A DNA stretch of 57,098 nt. Source: Desulfobacterales bacterium (GTDB lineage: Bacteria > Desulfobacterota > Desulfobacteria > Desulfobacterales > UBA11574). The notes beneath the pieces are model-generated. The model did no database searches, was not told where the DNA came from, and was given only the letters and a program-made list of their open reading frames with translations. The stretch spans positions 1 to 57,098 of the forward strand of contig JBAUWG010000037.1 in NCBI GenBank assembly GCA_049583675.1, given 5' to 3'. The translations under genes were made by a program, and so were the position numbers. Shown here in pieces: positions 8,998-57,098 of this stretch (position 1 is its first letter; each line of letters opens with the position of its first letter).

Positions 8998-9165
8998 GAC
9001 GTTTCGGAAATTTCACAATATTTAGGTTTGAGATCACCCCTGGAGTGGTGGAATATGGGGTTAAAAATGAAAACTTCTGTGTTAACTGAAATAGAATTCC
9101 TTACACCCATCATTCCAATATTCTATTATTCCAGCATTCCCGTTGAGGTGAAGCCTAATTTAAAT
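8998..9165 (+). repeat. Structured intergenic repeat, copy A (between tetR and icmF)
   Basis: Shares ordered blocks with copies B and C: GACGTTTCGGAAATTT, TTAGGTTTGA, an 8-nt periodic GGA-rich arm (GGAGTGGT GGAATATG GGGTTAAA, 9042-9065), its inverted partner (ACACCCATCATTCCAATATTCTATTATTCCAGCATTCC, 9103-9140) and the 3' block TTGAGGTGAAGCCTAATTTAAAT. Confidence 0.7.
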
Positions 9166-9197
9166 AGTTTAAATCTTCAATTATTTAAGGAGAATGT

Positions 9198-12100
9198 ATG
9201 ACAATGGCTGTTGAAGCTTACACACCCAAACATCCGATCCGAATCGTTACCGCAACGTCTCTGTTTGACGGTCACGATGCATCCATTAACATCATGCGCC
9301 GCATACTTCAAGATGCCGGCGTCGAGGTGATTCATATGGGGCACAATCGCTCGGCCAATGAAATCGCCGATGCGGCTGTCCAGGAAGATGTCCAAGGGGT
9401 GGCCGTATCAAGCTACCAGGGCGGTCATCTGGAATTTTTTAAATATATTGTCGATCTTTTGAAAGAAAAAAATGCATCCCATATCAAGGTTTTTGGCGGC
9501 GGCGGCGGGGTGATCATACCCGAAGAGATCAAAGAGCTGGAGTCATATGGCGTCACCAAAATCTATTCTCCTGAAGACGGCGCCAAAATGGGGCTCCGGG
9601 GAATGATTGATCACATGGTTCAACTGATGGATTTTTCTACCATCGAAAAGAGAGATTTTGCCATTGAAAATCTGTCTCCGGAAAATACGTTCATGCTGGC
9701 CGGATTGATTACTGCCGTTGAACAAGCTAAGGCAAAAGATGACGGACACCTCGCAAAACTCAGATCTCAAATTCAGAAACAAATCGGCGATCGAAAAATT
9801 CCGGTGATCGGTATAACCGGAACCGGCGGTGCGGGGAAATCATCTCTAACGGACGAACTGATATTAAGGTTTCTAAATGATTTTAAACATCTTAAACTCG
9901 CGGTCATCAGCAGCGATCCATCCCGCCGAAAAACCGGCGGAGCCCTTTTGGGTGACAGAATACGCATGAATGCCATCGAAAACCCGAGAGTCTACATGCG
10001 GAGCCTTGCCACCCGCGGATCCCTGACAGAGATCCCTTATGCCCTGGCTGAAACCATAGATGTGACGAAAGCGGCCGGCTTCGACCTTGTGATTGTCGAA
10101 ACCGCCGGGATCGGACAGGGAGATTCGCACATTATCGATCTTGTTGATTTGTCAATCTATGTGATGACCAGTGAATTCGGAGCCGCCACCCAGCTTGAAA
10201 AAATAGACATGCTTGATTTTGCTCATCTTGTTGTCGTGAACAAATATGAAAAACGAGGCGGCGAAGATGCGGTGCGAGACGTGCGAAAGCAGGTGCAGCG
10301 CAATCGGAAAGCATGGGAAAGACCTCTCAAGGATATGCCGGTGTATGGCACCATTGCCTCCAAGTTTAACGATGACGGCGTCACGGCCTTGTATCATGGA
10401 ATTATCGATGCTTTGTCGGAAAAAACAGGCCTTGTTTTTGATTCGAACCTTAAAAAACGCGATACAAAGACGTCGACATCCAAGACCATTATTATTCCTC
10501 CGGAGCGAACCCGTTATCTTTTTGAAATTGCCGATACCGTCAGAAAGTATCACCGAGAAACGCAAAGGCAGTCGGATGCAGTGAGAAACGTCTGGCACCT
10601 GAAGGAAACCGTAAAGGTCCTGGGTGAAGATCCTCTTAAAGACGACGCAACACAGATGTTGAATCGGCTTAAGATGGAAATCGATAAGGCCGAAGAAGCG
10701 CTTCATCCCGAAACGACGGCCCTGCTGGCGGATTGGGAAACGATTGAAGCGGCGTATACCCAAGACGAACTGGTATATCGGGTGAGAGACCGGGAAATCA
10801 GGGTCTCCCTTTACACCACATCGCTGGCCCATACTAAAATTCCAAAAATAGTCCTTCCTAAGTTCAAAGACCCCGGAGAGATTTATGCCTGGTTGAGGAA
10901 AGAAAATATTGCCGGACGTTTTCCATACACCGCCGGTGTTTTTCCGTTAAGACGGATCGACGAAGATCCCACCCGCATGTTCGCGGGTGAAGGGGATCCG
11001 GCCAAGACCAACCGACGATTTAAGCTTTTATCCGCCGACGCCAAAGCCAAACGGTTGTCGACGGCCTTCGATTCCGTCACGCTATATGGGTGCGATCCGG
11101 ACATAAGGCCCGATATTTACGGCAAAGTCGGGACTTCCGGGGTCAGCATATGCACCATAGACGATGTGAAGGTGCTCTATGACGGCTTTAATTTGTGCGC
11201 ACCCGACACCTCGGTTTCCATGACCATCAACGGCCCGGCTCCCATCCTGCTTGCGATGTTTCTCAATACGGCCGTTGATCAACAACTTGACGCGTTTCGG
11301 ACGGAAAAAGGAAGAGAACCTTCGAAAAAAGAACACAACGATATTCGATCCAAGGCCCTTTACAATGTTCGCGGAACGGTACAGGCGGATATTTTAAAAG
11401 AAGACCAGGGGCAGAACACCTGTATTTTTTCCATCGAATTCGCACTGAAAATGATGGGAGATATCCAGGAATACTTTATAGAGAACAACGTTCGAAATTT
11501 CTATTCGGTTTCCATATCCGGATACCACATTGCCGAAGCCGGCGCCAATCCGATTACCCAGCTGGCCCTTACACTGGCCAACGGATTTACTTATGTCGAG
11601 TATTATTTGTCCCGGGGCATGCCCATTGACAGTTTTGCCCCCAATCTCTCCTTTTTCTTTTCCAACGGCATGGACCCTGAATACACGGTCATCGGAAGGG
11701 TGGCCAGGCGCATCTGGGCGATTGCCATGAAGCATAAATACGGCGGATCCGCCCGGTCTCAGATGCTGAAATATCATGTGCAGACATCCGGCCGCTCTTT
11801 GCACAGCCAGGACATCCAGCTCAATGACATCCGGACGACGCTTCAGGCCCTCTGCGCGATCTATGACAACTGCAACAGCTTGCACACCAATGCTTTTGAT
11901 GAAGCCATTACCACGCCGAGTCATGAATCGGTGAGACGGGCCTTGGCCATTCAGCTCATCATCAACCGGGAATGGGGCCTTGCCAAAAATGAAAATTTGA
12001 ATCAAGGCAGCTTCGTAGTGGAAGAATTGACTCGTTTGGTCGAAGAAGCGGTCCTATTGGAATTCGACAGGATCACCGAGCGCGGCGGCGTTCTGGGCGC

Positions 12101-12476
12101 CATGGAGACCGGTTATCAACGGAGCAAAATTCAGGAAGAATCCTTGTATTATGAAAATTTAAAACATACCGGTGAATTGCCCATAGTCGGTGTCAATACC
12201 TTTCGGGATCCGGATGCCGATTTGGAGCAATTGACCGAATACATTGAGTTGTCCAGGGCCACCGAGGCTGAAAAGCAGTCGCAGATTAAGCGTCTGGCGG
12301 CGTTCAAGAAACAGCATAACAAAGCGTCGGATAACGCATTGCAACGGTTGCAGCACGTTGCCCTGTCCGGGGAAAACATTTTTGCAGAACTGATGGAGAC
12401 CGTCAAGGTGTGCACCCTGGGCCAGATTACCCAGGCATTATATGATGTGGGGGGAAAGTATCGACGAAATATGTAA
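9198..12476 (+). CDS. icmF: Fused isobutyryl-CoA mutase (IcmF): B12-binding domain, MeaB-like GTPase and mutase catalytic domain
   Basis: 1092 aa, AAGGAG 6 nt upstream. N-terminal B12-binding domain ([19 protein letters not shown]). P-loop [12 protein letters not shown] at 9810-9842. C-terminal acyl-CoA mutase TIM-barrel domain of about 530 aa. Confidence 0.9.
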
Positions 12477-35901: not shown

Positions 35902-36852
35902 ATGGCGAAGCGTGGGCGTCAGCGACCGAAGAAAAGTCTAAAAAAGACGAAAAAGCGCGGTATTTGGAGTACGTACCTGATACAGGCTGTTGCAGGACTC
36001 GGCATTTTGTTATTTCTGGTTGTCGTTGCCGGTGTGCTGTTGCGCCATTTCATGTCGAACAGAGATGTCGTGCCACCAATGACAAAATCCCGGGTTATCA
36101 GATCGCCCAGGTTTGAAGTCTATCCCAAAAATGATATATCGCCCCGCGAACCGCTGCCGAAAAAACCCCGCAAAGCCCTCGAAAGGTTACCCAAAATTGC
36201 CATAATTATTGATGATATCGGCTATGACAAAGCCATCGCAAATAAATTCTTGGCACTTAACGCGGTGTTAACATTTTCCATACTTCCTTACAGTCCCTAT
36301 GAGAAAAGCATTGCCAGTAGCGTTCATTCAAAAGGTTACGACGTGATGCTTCATTTGCCCATGGAGCCTGATGAGTATCCATCGATCAATCCCGGTCCCG
36401 GAGTGCTTCTGACTTCCATGACACCGGATCAACTGATCGGCCAGCTCAATGAAGACCTGGATGCTTTCCCGTTCATAACAGGGGTAAATAATCATATGGG
36501 GTCAAAAATGACGACGGTTTCTCCTCAACTCAACCAGATTTTTTCGGTGTTGAAGGGGAAAGGGCTTTTCTTTATTGACAGCCGCACCACGCCGGATACG
36601 CTTTGCAAACCATCGGCGCAGCTCTTCAAAGTTCCTTTTGCGCAAAAAGATGTCTTTATCGATCATAAACCGGAACCCGACTTTATCCGCAAACAAATCC
36701 AACGGCTCATAATGATTGCCGATAGTCATGGCGAAGCGGTCGGGATTGCGCACCCACATCCCGAAACTTATGATATCCTTCGTGAAATGCTGCCGGAGCT
36801 TCAAAAAAAGGCAACACTGGTTCGTGCATCCGATATTGTACATAATAATTAG
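35902..36852 (+). CDS. Divergent polysaccharide deacetylase family protein (YibQ-like)
   Basis: 316 aa. N-terminal TM, then the YibQ-type core (KIAIIIDDIGYD, MLHLPMEP, GVNNHMGS, FFIDSRTT). Starts 4 nt after the ctp stop. Confidence 0.8.
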   Translation: MAKRGRQRPKKSLKKTKKRGIWSTYLIQAVAGLGILLFLVVVAGVLLRHFMSNRDVVPPMTKSRVIRSPRFEVYPKNDISPREPLPKKPRKALERLPKIAIIIDDIGYDKAIANKFLALNAVLTFSILPYSPYEKSIASSVHSKGYDVMLHLPMEPDEYPSINPGPGVLLTSMTPDQLIGQLNEDLDAFPFITGVNNHMGSKMTTVSPQLNQIFSVLKGKGLFFIDSRTTPDTLCKPSAQLFKVPFAQKDVFIDHKPEPDFIRKQIQRLIMIADSHGEAVGIAHPHPETYDILREMLPELQKKATLVRASDIVHNN

Positions 36853-37078
36853 ACGTCTCGGAAATTCTTCAACCTAATGAAAATATCGAATGTTTTTTAG
36901 GTTTAAACACTTTCATCGAATATGGAATATTGGAAGGTTGGTTTTTAAAAGGATATGAGCCATCTTTAATTTTATCGGTAGCAAAAAATTTCACCATTGA
37001 GCCAACACCCCATTATTCCCTCCGAGGCGTAGGCCCTAATGACCGGAGGCCAATTGAGGCGAAGCCCCTAACTTGAAT
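36853..37078 (+). repeat. Structured intergenic repeat, copy B (between yibQ-like and CPBP-like genes)
   Basis: Blocks GACGTCTCGGAAATTC, TTAGGTTTAA, arm GGAATATT GGAAGGTT GG (36924-36941), inverted partner CCAACACCCCATTATTCCCTCC (37002-37023), and 3' block TTGAGGCGAAGCCCCTAACTTGAAT preceded by an internal duplication (GAGGCGTAGGCCCTAATGA). Confidence 0.7.
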
Positions 37079-50126: not shown

Positions 50127-50824
50127 AGATAAAGTCCTTTGGTTTTTATATAATCCTCAATAATTTCAGGTACCAGATGCTTGATCGAAACCCCTTTTTT
50201 GATATATTCGCGAATGGTTGTTGACGAAATATCTATGGGCGAGACATCGAAAACAAAAATCGGTTGTTTTCTATCATGAACGTAGGTCGATTGAGAAGCG
50301 GAAAACGCATATCCTTTCGAAATTCTGGACCGGAGAAAATTTCCTAGAACATCACCTCGGGATGTTTTTTCGTCTTTTCCTGCAACGGTTCGGGATATTA
50401 CGATAAAAGGGATTAACAGGAAAAGATCTTTATAAGATTTCCAGGTGTCTATCTCCAAAAAGGCATCCAGCCCCATGATGAGATAAAGCTTCGTGCTTTC
50501 GGGCAGTATCGACCTGAAATATCGAACCGTATCAATCGTATATGAAAGCCCTGTGCGTTTCAGTTCCACCTCGGAAATCACGAAATCCGGATCGCTTAAA
50601 AATGCGAGCCGGATCATTTCAAGGCGATCTTCGGCATCTACCACGGTGTTCTGGTTTTTATGGGGGGGCAGTGCTGAAGGAATAATCAGTATTTCGTCCA
50701 GATTAAAACCCGATTTCACTTCCCGAATAACCTGGACATGTCCTAAATGAACCGGATTGAATGTACCTCCGAAAAGTCCTATCTGTTTCAAAATTCCCGT
50801 TTTTCCCAATATTCCAATATTCAA
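50123..50824 (-). CDS. nadD: Nicotinate-nucleotide adenylyltransferase
   Basis: GLFGGTFNPVHLGH motif. The tracked start is TTG 50824. A later in-frame TTG at 50791, giving MKQIGLFGG, is equally plausible. Confidence 0.9.
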   Translation of the reverse strand: MNIGILGKTGILKQIGLFGGTFNPVHLGHVQVIREVKSGFNLDEILIIPSALPPHKNQNTVVDAEDRLEMIRLAFLSDPDFVISEVELKRTGLSYTIDTVRYFRSILPESTKLYLIMGLDAFLEIDTWKSYKDLFLLIPFIVISRTVAGKDEKTSRGDVLGNFLRSRISKGYAFSASQSTYVHDRKQPIFVFDVSPIDISSTTIREYIKKGVSIKHLVPEIIEDYIKTKGLYL

Positions 50825-50909
50825 GCCATATGCAATGTGATTATCATCATTTCCCTGTGGGGTGAACCCAAAACCAGGTCCTTTAAATCAGGATCGTTAT
50901 TAGGCCGGA

Positions 50910-56959: not shown

Positions 56960-57098
56960 AACGTTTCGGGAATTTTTAATTTATTGAGTCTTGGTTTTAT
57001 TGCTTTGTACGTGGAATAATGGAATAGTGGGATATTGATTTTTAGAGGAATGTTATCATTTATGATTTTTTTAATGTCCGATTAAGACGGATTTTACC
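56960..57098 (+). repeat. Structured intergenic repeat, copy C (downstream of pyrE, truncated by window end)
   Basis: AACGTTTCGGGAATTT, then the tandem 8-mers GGAATAAT GGAATAGT GGGATATT (57013-57036). These match the reverse complement of the 3' arm of copy A. The window ends before a partner arm could be seen. Confidence 0.6.

Follow-up and report, generated by a model that had tools for sequence, protein, structure and literature searches.

A repeat shared by three intergenic spacers

We studied a window of 57,098 nucleotides (the whole of the DNA stretch analyzed, contig JBAUWG010000037.1 of assembly GCA_049583675.1, Desulfobacterales bacterium) in which three intergenic spacers carry a similar noncoding element, referred to here as copies A, B, and C (Table 1). 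According to Pfam, the genes upstream of them code for a TetR regulator, a YibQ-type divergent polysaccharide deacetylase, and a PyrE-like phosphoribosyltransferase, respectively, and the distances from the stop codons of these genes to the first base of the copies are 24, 0, and 7 nt. An earlier examination of the letters alone (the sequence-only reading) had proposed that the three spacers hold an undescribed repeat family beginning within about 25 nt of a stop codon, and both points were borne out. The degenerate 14-mer ACGTYTCGGRAATT matched exactly at positions 8999, 36853, and 56961, always on the plus strand; the window has no other match, when 0.002 exact matches would be expected from base composition. 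The three regions are copies of an undescribed family of small noncoding repeats.

The same ordered blocks had been ascribed to all three copies, and this held in part. The 5' block is present in A, B, and C. The GGA-rich (GGAAT-rich) arm with its inverted partner (75 to 86% complementarity) and the 3' block TTGAGGYGAAGCC, found exactly at 9143 and 37054, occur in A and B; copy C is cut by the window end after its 5' arm, and no inverted partner or 3' block is visible. A further block, TTAGGTTTRA, was found only in A and B and, taken alone, is not more frequent than expected by chance.

The copies are strongly diverged, and pairwise local alignments among them scored only 2.7 to 4.6 standard deviations above shuffled sequences. 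Together with the chance-level frequency of TTAGGTTTRA, this would fit a fortuitous likeness among AT-rich spacers, an explanation whose probability we regard as negligible given the three exact 14-mer matches and the results obtained with other genomes. Profiles of the 5' and 3' modules, built solely from copies outside the window, matched the window copies with E values of 0.011 (A), 5e-16 (B), and 5.5e-4 (C) for the 5' module and, using nhmmer, 4.9e-8 (A) and 1.2e-4 (B) for the 3' module, which the window end cuts off in C. Since all three share the 14-mer and are matched by profiles from outside copies, the membership of the window copies in the family is significant.

Table 1. Copies of the repeat in the window and their parts
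Feature	Position	Strand	Remarks
Copy A	8999..9162	+	Complete, strongly diverged, 164 bp; between tetR stop (8974) and icmF-like start (9198)
Copy A, 5' terminal block ACGTTTCGGAAATT	8999..9012	+	Exact 14-mer; family logo jumps from ~0.6 to ~2 bits here
Copy A, 5' arm	9040..9061	+	GGA-rich, degenerate TGGAATNN units; inverted repeats I1, I2, and I5; pairs 9040-9059/9115-9134 and 9042-9055/9127-9140
Copy A, 3' arm	9105..9141	+	ATTCCA units, inverted partner of 5' arm; within 3'-module match 9105-9167
Copy A, 3' end	9145..9162	+	Mini-hairpin GAGGTGAAGCC, TAA, TTTA; flank AAATCTTCAATT... beyond it also in element-free orthologues
Copy B	36853..37075	+	Complete, 223 bp; between yibQ stop (36852) and next gene (37084)
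Copy B, 5' arm	36924..36941	+	Inverted-repeat pair I1 (36924-36941/37002-37019)
Copy B, 3' arm	37002..37019	+	Inverted-repeat pair I1
Copy B, nested mini-repeat CTCCGAGGCGTAGGCCCTAATGACCGGAGGCC	37020..37051	+	GC-rich, palindromic, 32 nt; separate small repeat outside family core
Copy B, 3' end	37056..37075	+	Hairpin GAGGCGAAGCCCC, TAA, CTTG; empty alleles without CTTG, flank resumes at AATATCTG
Copy C	56961..57098	+	5' part only, cut by window end; 5' block 56961-56974, 5' arm 57012-57037

The family in other genomes

The search for further copies that the sequence-only reading had called for found them in many genomes. Using the pattern ACGTNTCGGNAATT-N30-60-TGGAATA and one representative genome per species, at least 120 loci were matched, and 81 of 125 pattern matches were family members by virtue of an additional 33-nt consensus in common. 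These loci (at least 81) come from at least 37 assemblies, with up to 11 loci per metagenome-assembled genome (MAG) among the matches listed. The source labels were almost all Desulfobacterales, Desulfobacteraceae, or Deltaproteobacteria; Eth-SRB2 and the Olavius Delta 1 symbiont are among the sources. The window organism itself falls in Desulfobacterales according to the source names of its YibQ homologues. Near-identical copies were found at unrelated loci of one genome, and 10 of the 8-kb loci contained a second 5'-module match. Many MAG contigs start or stop within the element, two of them (L003 and L018) at both ends, and the Logan contig L001 from the window's own organism breaks in the arm of copy C (L001:5127-5191). 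The window end, this Logan contig, and many MAG contigs all terminate in TGGAAT arrays.

The flanking genes were unrelated to each other, both in the window and at ca. 80 outside loci, in agreement with the initial view that the element is not specific to a pathway. It had also not been recognized as a known riboswitch, and indeed no Rfam family reached its gathering threshold in the window, while in 15 canonical loci the only hit was a tRNA elsewhere in the sequence. An E-value-level Rfam search of one copy gave as best subthreshold match MIR475 (23 bits of the 70 needed), and the search for tRNA and tmRNA that accompanied the Rfam scan found none. We found no match to the element in viral contigs or plasmids and no relevant literature match for its characteristic sequences or for Desulfobacter repeats.

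Anatomy and boundaries

The copies measure 136 to 329 bp, and more where other small repeats are nested in them, and contain no open reading frame (ORF). The 5' end is the nearly invariant ACGTCTCGGAAATTCTACAACTTATTGAAATTA (beginning ACGTCTCGGAAATTCTACAAC...), followed by ca. 40 variable nucleotides and then by two to five units of the 8-nt TGGAATNN, so that TGGAAT, a hexamer, is repeated strictly every 8 bp in a variable number of units. A variable core comes next, often with CTGTCAAGAGGAATTTTAC, and the 3' half repeats the same units inverted (ATTCCA), the two arms aligning over ca. 31 bp with 83% complementarity. After the 3' arm there is CAATTG and a mini-hairpin of the GCGAAGC type (GGGGCGAAGCCCC, GAGCGAAGCGAAC, GGAGCGAAGCGGAGC, and the compensated GGGCCGAAGGCCC), then TAA, and finally a tetranucleotide, GTTC or CTTG, beyond which the copies abruptly cease to be similar. 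Among 55 copies, the terminal tetranucleotide was GTTC in 25 and CTTG in 12, the rest being GTCC, CTTC, GCTC, TTTG, and similar one-base variants, and its first and fourth bases covary.

Both boundaries are sharp. On the 5' side, ACGT marks with its first A a rise in information content from ca. 0.6 to ca. 2 bits, and on the 3' side the content falls from ca. 1.7 to ca. 0.15 bits past the terminal CTAASTTS, in which six fixed positions have 1.6 to 2 bits and the two S positions ca. 0.5 bits. Upstream of the 5' boundary there is a preferred flank, TAATTWA (0.5 to 0.7 bits per position), that, set in register with the terminal TAASTTS, agrees with it at four to five of seven positions. This flank ended in TTAA (19 copies), AATA, TTGA, TTAT, and other sets of four bases; neither GTTC nor CTTG was among the 15 commonest of 94 flanks.

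These ends bear on whether the family could be a classical MITE (a miniature transposable element with inverted repeats), that is, a deletion derivative of an insertion sequence with a DDE transposase, moved by cut and paste. Its members are small, noncoding, multicopy, intergenic, and insertion polymorphic and have internal inverted repeats, all of which a MITE would show. However, the 5' end ACGTCTCGGAAATTC and the 3' end GCGAAGCCCCTAAGTTC are unrelated (compare ACGTCTCGG... with ...GCGAAGCCCCTAAGTTC), the inverted arms being internal, so terminal inverted repeats are lacking, and no identical direct repeat adjoins the boundaries of any of the ca. 50 complete copies. The target-site duplications that the sequence-only reading had suggested looking for are thus absent from these copies, its view that this is not a recognized MITE family is correct in the strict sense of the term, and the classical MITE explanation, contradicted by the two ends, is very improbable indeed.

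Some copies carry further small repeats. Inserts related to the 32-nt mini-repeat of copy B are found at the same spot in L072, L117, L014, L066, L158, and L159; they are either another small mobile repeat, with the element as its target, or an optional module. Another nested GC-rich repeat, CCTGCCCGC...GCAATGGCAGGCGG, lies between the 3' arm and the 3' hairpin in L042, L118, L065, and L120. It is itself polymorphic, since it is present in L090 (1995-2065) and missing at the same place in the orthologous locus L062.

Empty sites, relics, and independent insertions

In order to see whether the element is inserted DNA, two of the window loci can be followed in relatives. At the yibQ locus, eight alleles were compared. 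In the window, where the full element is present, the spacer to the next gene measures 231 nt and YibQ ends in ...HNN*. Four alleles are empty (L206, L207, L209, and L212, with 95%, 92%, 85%, and 85% protein identity), with spacers of 38 to 51 nt, YibQ ends ...HTGG* or ...HTAG*, and no trace of the element. The remaining three (L211, L210, and L208) have decayed copies, spacers of 122, 37, and 24 nt, and again ...HNN*. In L211, the 5' half of the element is joined to the 3' hairpin; in L210, it has collapsed between two CCTAA direct repeats; and in L208, a small relic is left. Filled and empty alleles have the right flank AATATCTG in common, and because the empty alleles have no CTTG before it, the terminal CTTG must be part of the insert. 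The filled allele shows no duplication relative to the empty ones. In these eight alleles, the C terminus ...HNN* (36838-36852 in the window) is found only where the element or its relics are. By YibQ identity, the lineages with the filled allele are not the nearest to one another, which suggests that the allele may have been transferred by recombination or that an adjacent deletion event may have been involved.

The spacer between tetR and the icmF-like gene was compared among 80 orthologous loci, most of which have no element and spacers of 9 to 100 nt. The element is found at the same position as in the window (+24) in L126, L137, and L139, as an internally deleted relic in L128, and not at all in L127. 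A separate insertion of a canonical copy, 2 nt past the stop codon, is present in L004, L156, L158, and L159, while L151 and L155, which are related to these, have an empty site. In other lineages (L164, L169, L176, L201, L129, and L142), unrelated repeats fill this spacer, namely, long arrays of the GATCACTG/GGATGCTG type, four units of the REP-like CCCTGTAAAGCGGGTTTnAAACCCGCTTTACA, and a further element. The tetR-icmF spacer collects repeats of many kinds.

These data show that the element is inserted DNA. The empty sites, independent insertions, and decayed relics in relatives identify it as non-autonomous mobile DNA, one of the options left by the sequence-only reading and also in keeping with the near-identical copies at unrelated loci.

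Orientation and the question of a transcript-level role

Complete copies located between tandem genes are co-oriented with the genes in a ratio of 18:1 (p = 8e-5). When all neighbors are counted, 53 are co-oriented versus 21, and for the downstream gene alone, the numbers are 25 co-oriented and 9 opposed. Many copies lie 0 to 10 nt past a stop codon and shortly ahead of the next ribosome-binding site. This arrangement is what would be expected if the family were chiefly a cis-acting transcript element of 3' untranslated regions or of the spaces between cistrons, in which the arm hairpin stabilizes or processes read-through mRNA as REP sequences do, and which was spread only secondarily by a mobile ancestor. 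The conservation of copy A over long divergence points in the same direction: between the window and L137, spacer identity is 0.72 to 0.78, whereas it is 0.47 to 0.53 at four-fold sites. Nevertheless, compared with L126, the spacer (0.82 to 0.85) evolves no more slowly than four-fold sites (0.89), close relatives have either no element or only scraps of it, and about one-third of the copies have a neighbor on the opposite strand.

The sequence of the arms does not favor an RNA either. Among arm mismatches, 51 were of the wobble type on the plus strand versus 67 on the minus strand, with no plus-strand excess, and transversions (116) were as common as transition-type changes, making up half of the mismatches. 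The minus strand folds marginally better, the plus strand having no energy advantage, and single-sequence folds of copies A and B were no better than those of shuffled sequences (z of -1.1 and -1.5). RNAalifold found neither a consensus structure nor covariation in 77 aligned 5' modules. No hairpin is present in the conserved first 35 nt, and the one that can form with compensating changes 45 to 75 nt in, within the variable stretch, is absent from several subfamilies, so it was discarded as a family feature. Scans of both strands detected no conserved promoter or terminator. We therefore see no sign of strand-specific RNA structure; the arms behave as DNA-level repeats. That the family is primarily a small RNA or 3'-untranslated element, as the sequence-only reading had considered, is not supported by these observations, and together with the lack of any Rfam match they make the transcript-element explanation unlikely. 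The gene co-orientation still leaves room for a secondary role at the transcript level and suggests that insertions survive only where read-through transcripts tolerate them. Selection on such transcripts, an outward half-promoter, or transcription-coupled targeting could account for the orientation bias.

A double-stranded array of protein-binding sites would account for arms that behave as DNA repeats rather than as RNA helices and for TGGAAT units with a strict 8-bp period and variable number. In such an array, the units would bind a nucleoid-associated or regulatory protein, possibly together with an IHF-like site (TTTCAATAAGTTG, minus strand) in the 5' block, affecting the local DNA architecture or providing part of a promoter for the downstream gene. 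The mostly co-oriented downstream genes and a TTGNGN, read from the sequences, at the 3' end, 17 nt ahead of the AT-rich flank, would agree with the latter. However, no binding protein is known, a period of 8 bp is unsuitable for helical phasing, and the promoter scan found nothing conserved. Moreover, the linkers between units are complementary across the arms, which a pure array of sites would not need, and neither the sharp asymmetric ends nor the insertion polymorphism is explained. We consider this possibility highly unlikely.

A candidate single-stranded DNA mobilization mechanism

The reading that we favor, with about even confidence, is that the family consists of small noncoding non-autonomous mobile DNA of Desulfobacterales moved in trans by a transposase of the HUH type acting on single-stranded DNA (ssDNA). 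Transposases of the HUH families IS91 and IS200/IS605 recognize one short sequence both in the target and at the end of the donor. We infer HUH-type mobilization from the 3' end of the element, which resembles the terIS of IS91, and from the flank TAATTWA, which resembles the element's own 3' end. Under such a mechanism, a transposase encoded elsewhere, either as in IS91 (Y2) or as in IS200/IS605 (Y1), would recognize the stable 3' hairpin and cut past the terminal tetranucleotide, and the element would be joined 3' of a TAATTWA target similar to its own TAASTTS. Since this target is AT-rich and contains stop codons in two frames, copies would end up directly behind genes, the position noticed in the sequence-only reading: insertions inside genes would be lost, and the survivors would abut gene ends. 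Inserted copies may even supply the stop codon of the gene, as in the HNN* alleles of yibQ. After insertion, most copies drift and decay.

The likeness to IS91 lies in the layout of the terminus. The element end GGGGCGAAGCCCC-TAA-GTTC consists of a GC hairpin, 3 nt, and a tetranucleotide, and the transferred strand of IS91 ends likewise in ...GCAGCCGCCAGGCTGC-CTA-CTCG. As reference for IS91 we used a full copy from plasmid NZ_LT795505 (locus L125), since pO157 held only a transposase fragment. Members of this rolling-circle family with a Y2 HUH enzyme (IS91, IS801, and IS1294) are also without terminal inverted repeats and target duplication, like the element. The tetranucleotides GTTC, CTTG, GTCC, and CTTC are used by IS91-family transposases (PMC13181058), and GCGAAGC is an exceptionally stable DNA mini-hairpin of a kind found at ssDNA replication origins (PMC13037366). 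Short derivatives of the IS91 family without transposase are mobilized in trans, with intact IS801 copies in single-digit numbers (PMC3189936), while the copy number of the element looks far higher than this intact IS801 count. The internal TGGAAT arrays of the element have no counterpart in IS91 either.

With regard to the Y1 enzymes, two reports describe IS200/IS605-derived elements and REP/RAYT systems as having a short target on the 5' side, a 3' cleavage sequence, a subterminal 3' hairpin, no duplication, and many intergenic copies (PMC3201880, PMC3333891). As far as those descriptions go, the IS200/IS605-derived PATEs and the REP/BIME-RAYT systems share their geometry with the element, that is, a 5' flank preference, a 3' terminal sequence, a 3' subterminal hairpin, and no duplication, and like the element they are abundant in intergenic DNA.

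Several observations weigh against HUH-type mobilization. In 1.29 Mb of fetched loci, an end-motif search found no autonomous copy and no transposase with these ends, tblastn with the IS91 TnpA gave no match, and ORF clustering revealed no recurrent neighboring gene family. A gene downstream of the element in L007, L059, and L119, at first a candidate for a multicopy partner, is era. The 5' flank is TAATTWA, whereas IS91-family elements have GTTC/CTTG beside oriIS, at the end opposite to terIS, and the GC hairpin is at the 3' end only, in contrast to IS200/IS605 elements, where either end has a similar one. Insertion into the lagging-strand template, as in IS200/IS605, predicts a link with GC skew; instead, the orientation follows the genes (18:1) and is not linked to local skew, which on the element's plus strand was positive in 32 of 64 loci (a weak proxy for replication at 4 to 8 kb per locus). 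Finally, the conservation of copy A relative to L137, above that of four-fold sites, hints at constraint or function over pure parasitism.

A model in which GTTC/CTTG is the target tetranucleotide beside oriIS was rejected: in a real IS91, the target is located 5' of the insertion sequence on the strand that reads CTTG, and the empty yibQ alleles have no CTTG. The terIS-like reading of the 3' tetranucleotide remains. A distinctly unlikely alternative is that the family represents the non-autonomous high-copy form of an unrecognized type of prokaryotic transposon, with either a divergent HUH enzyme (IS91/Helitron-like) or a wholly new one, that would read the GCGAAGC mini-hairpin and GTTC/CTTG and whose insertions behind TAATTWA would be coupled to transcription and co-oriented with genes, some copies having been domesticated as spacers between cistrons.

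Comparison with other intergenic repeats

REPs are short palindromes, a few tens of bases long, and REP/BIME sequences are associated with RAYT. The element, an ordered mosaic of 130 to 330 bp with no recurrent neighboring gene among the loci examined, differs from them in both respects, consistent with its not having been recognized as a REP in the earlier reading. Eukaryotic non-autonomous Helitrons and Helentrons (e.g., DINE-1) have asymmetric ends, a 3' subterminal hairpin with a CTRR terminus, no target duplication, high copy numbers, captured sequences, and internal tandem repeats. The element resembles them in its asymmetric ends, its 3' hairpin, a CTAA that fits CTRR, its variable internal short repeats, the lack of a duplication, its high copy number, and the capture of extra sequence. 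However, they belong to another domain of hosts, the element is not inserted between A and T, and it has no known Rep/helicase partner, so this is an analogy and not homology.

The pneumococcal BOX, the enterobacterial ERIC/IRU, and the Correia elements of Neisseria are likewise modular intergenic repeats, Correia and ERIC with terminal inverted repeats and Correia with a TA duplication. They share with the element the ordered modules, a variable number of units, a location in transcribed spacers right after genes, the potential to form hairpins, and possibly an IHF-like site, but they have no sequence relation to it, and their host ranges differ. The family is a new one among bacterial non-autonomous repeats, and none of the known families tested combines all that it shows: asymmetric ends, a terIS-like terminus of hairpin and tetranucleotide, the TAATTWA flank, inverted arrays with an 8-nt period, and co-orientation with genes.

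Abundant bacterial repeats without inverted ends and target duplications are rare. An end like the terIS of IS91, combined with a different target and a bias toward the direction of genes, could reveal a new branch of ssDNA transposition and how such elements are tamed, and the hairpin followed by TAAGTTC provides a defined oligonucleotide substrate (CCAATTGGGGCGAAGCCCCTAAGTTC-N10) for biochemical tests. From a practical point of view, short-read assemblies of Desulfobacterales MAGs break at the element, the window end included, and it inflates spacers and can rewrite the ends of genes, as with the HNN* of YibQ in place of HTGG*. Binning and annotation would benefit from masking it, in an environmentally important group that includes sulfate reducers, partners of alkane-oxidizing archaea, and worm symbionts.

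Other features of the window

A 44-codon mini-ORF in copy A (9067-9201) was considered as a possible gene. Changes counted by hand relative to L137 were 7 synonymous and 17 nonsynonymous, and the frame is shifted in L126, so that it is probably noncoding, in line with the initial view that the element has no coding potential. The mini-ORF overlaps the start of the icmF-like gene in an ATGA and has an equal length in L137. Elsewhere in the window, CCCAATATTCCAATATTC (50803-50825), upstream of a minus-strand gene, resembles a relic of the 3' arm but falls under the profile threshold. The gene 3' of copy A (9198-12476) codes for an IcmF-like protein of 1,092 amino acids, a fusion of B12-binding, MeaB GTPase, and methylmalonyl-CoA mutase parts. 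A motif conserved before its ribosome-binding site in nearly all orthologues, AATCTTCAATTTAT, is possibly a TetR operator or a promoter.

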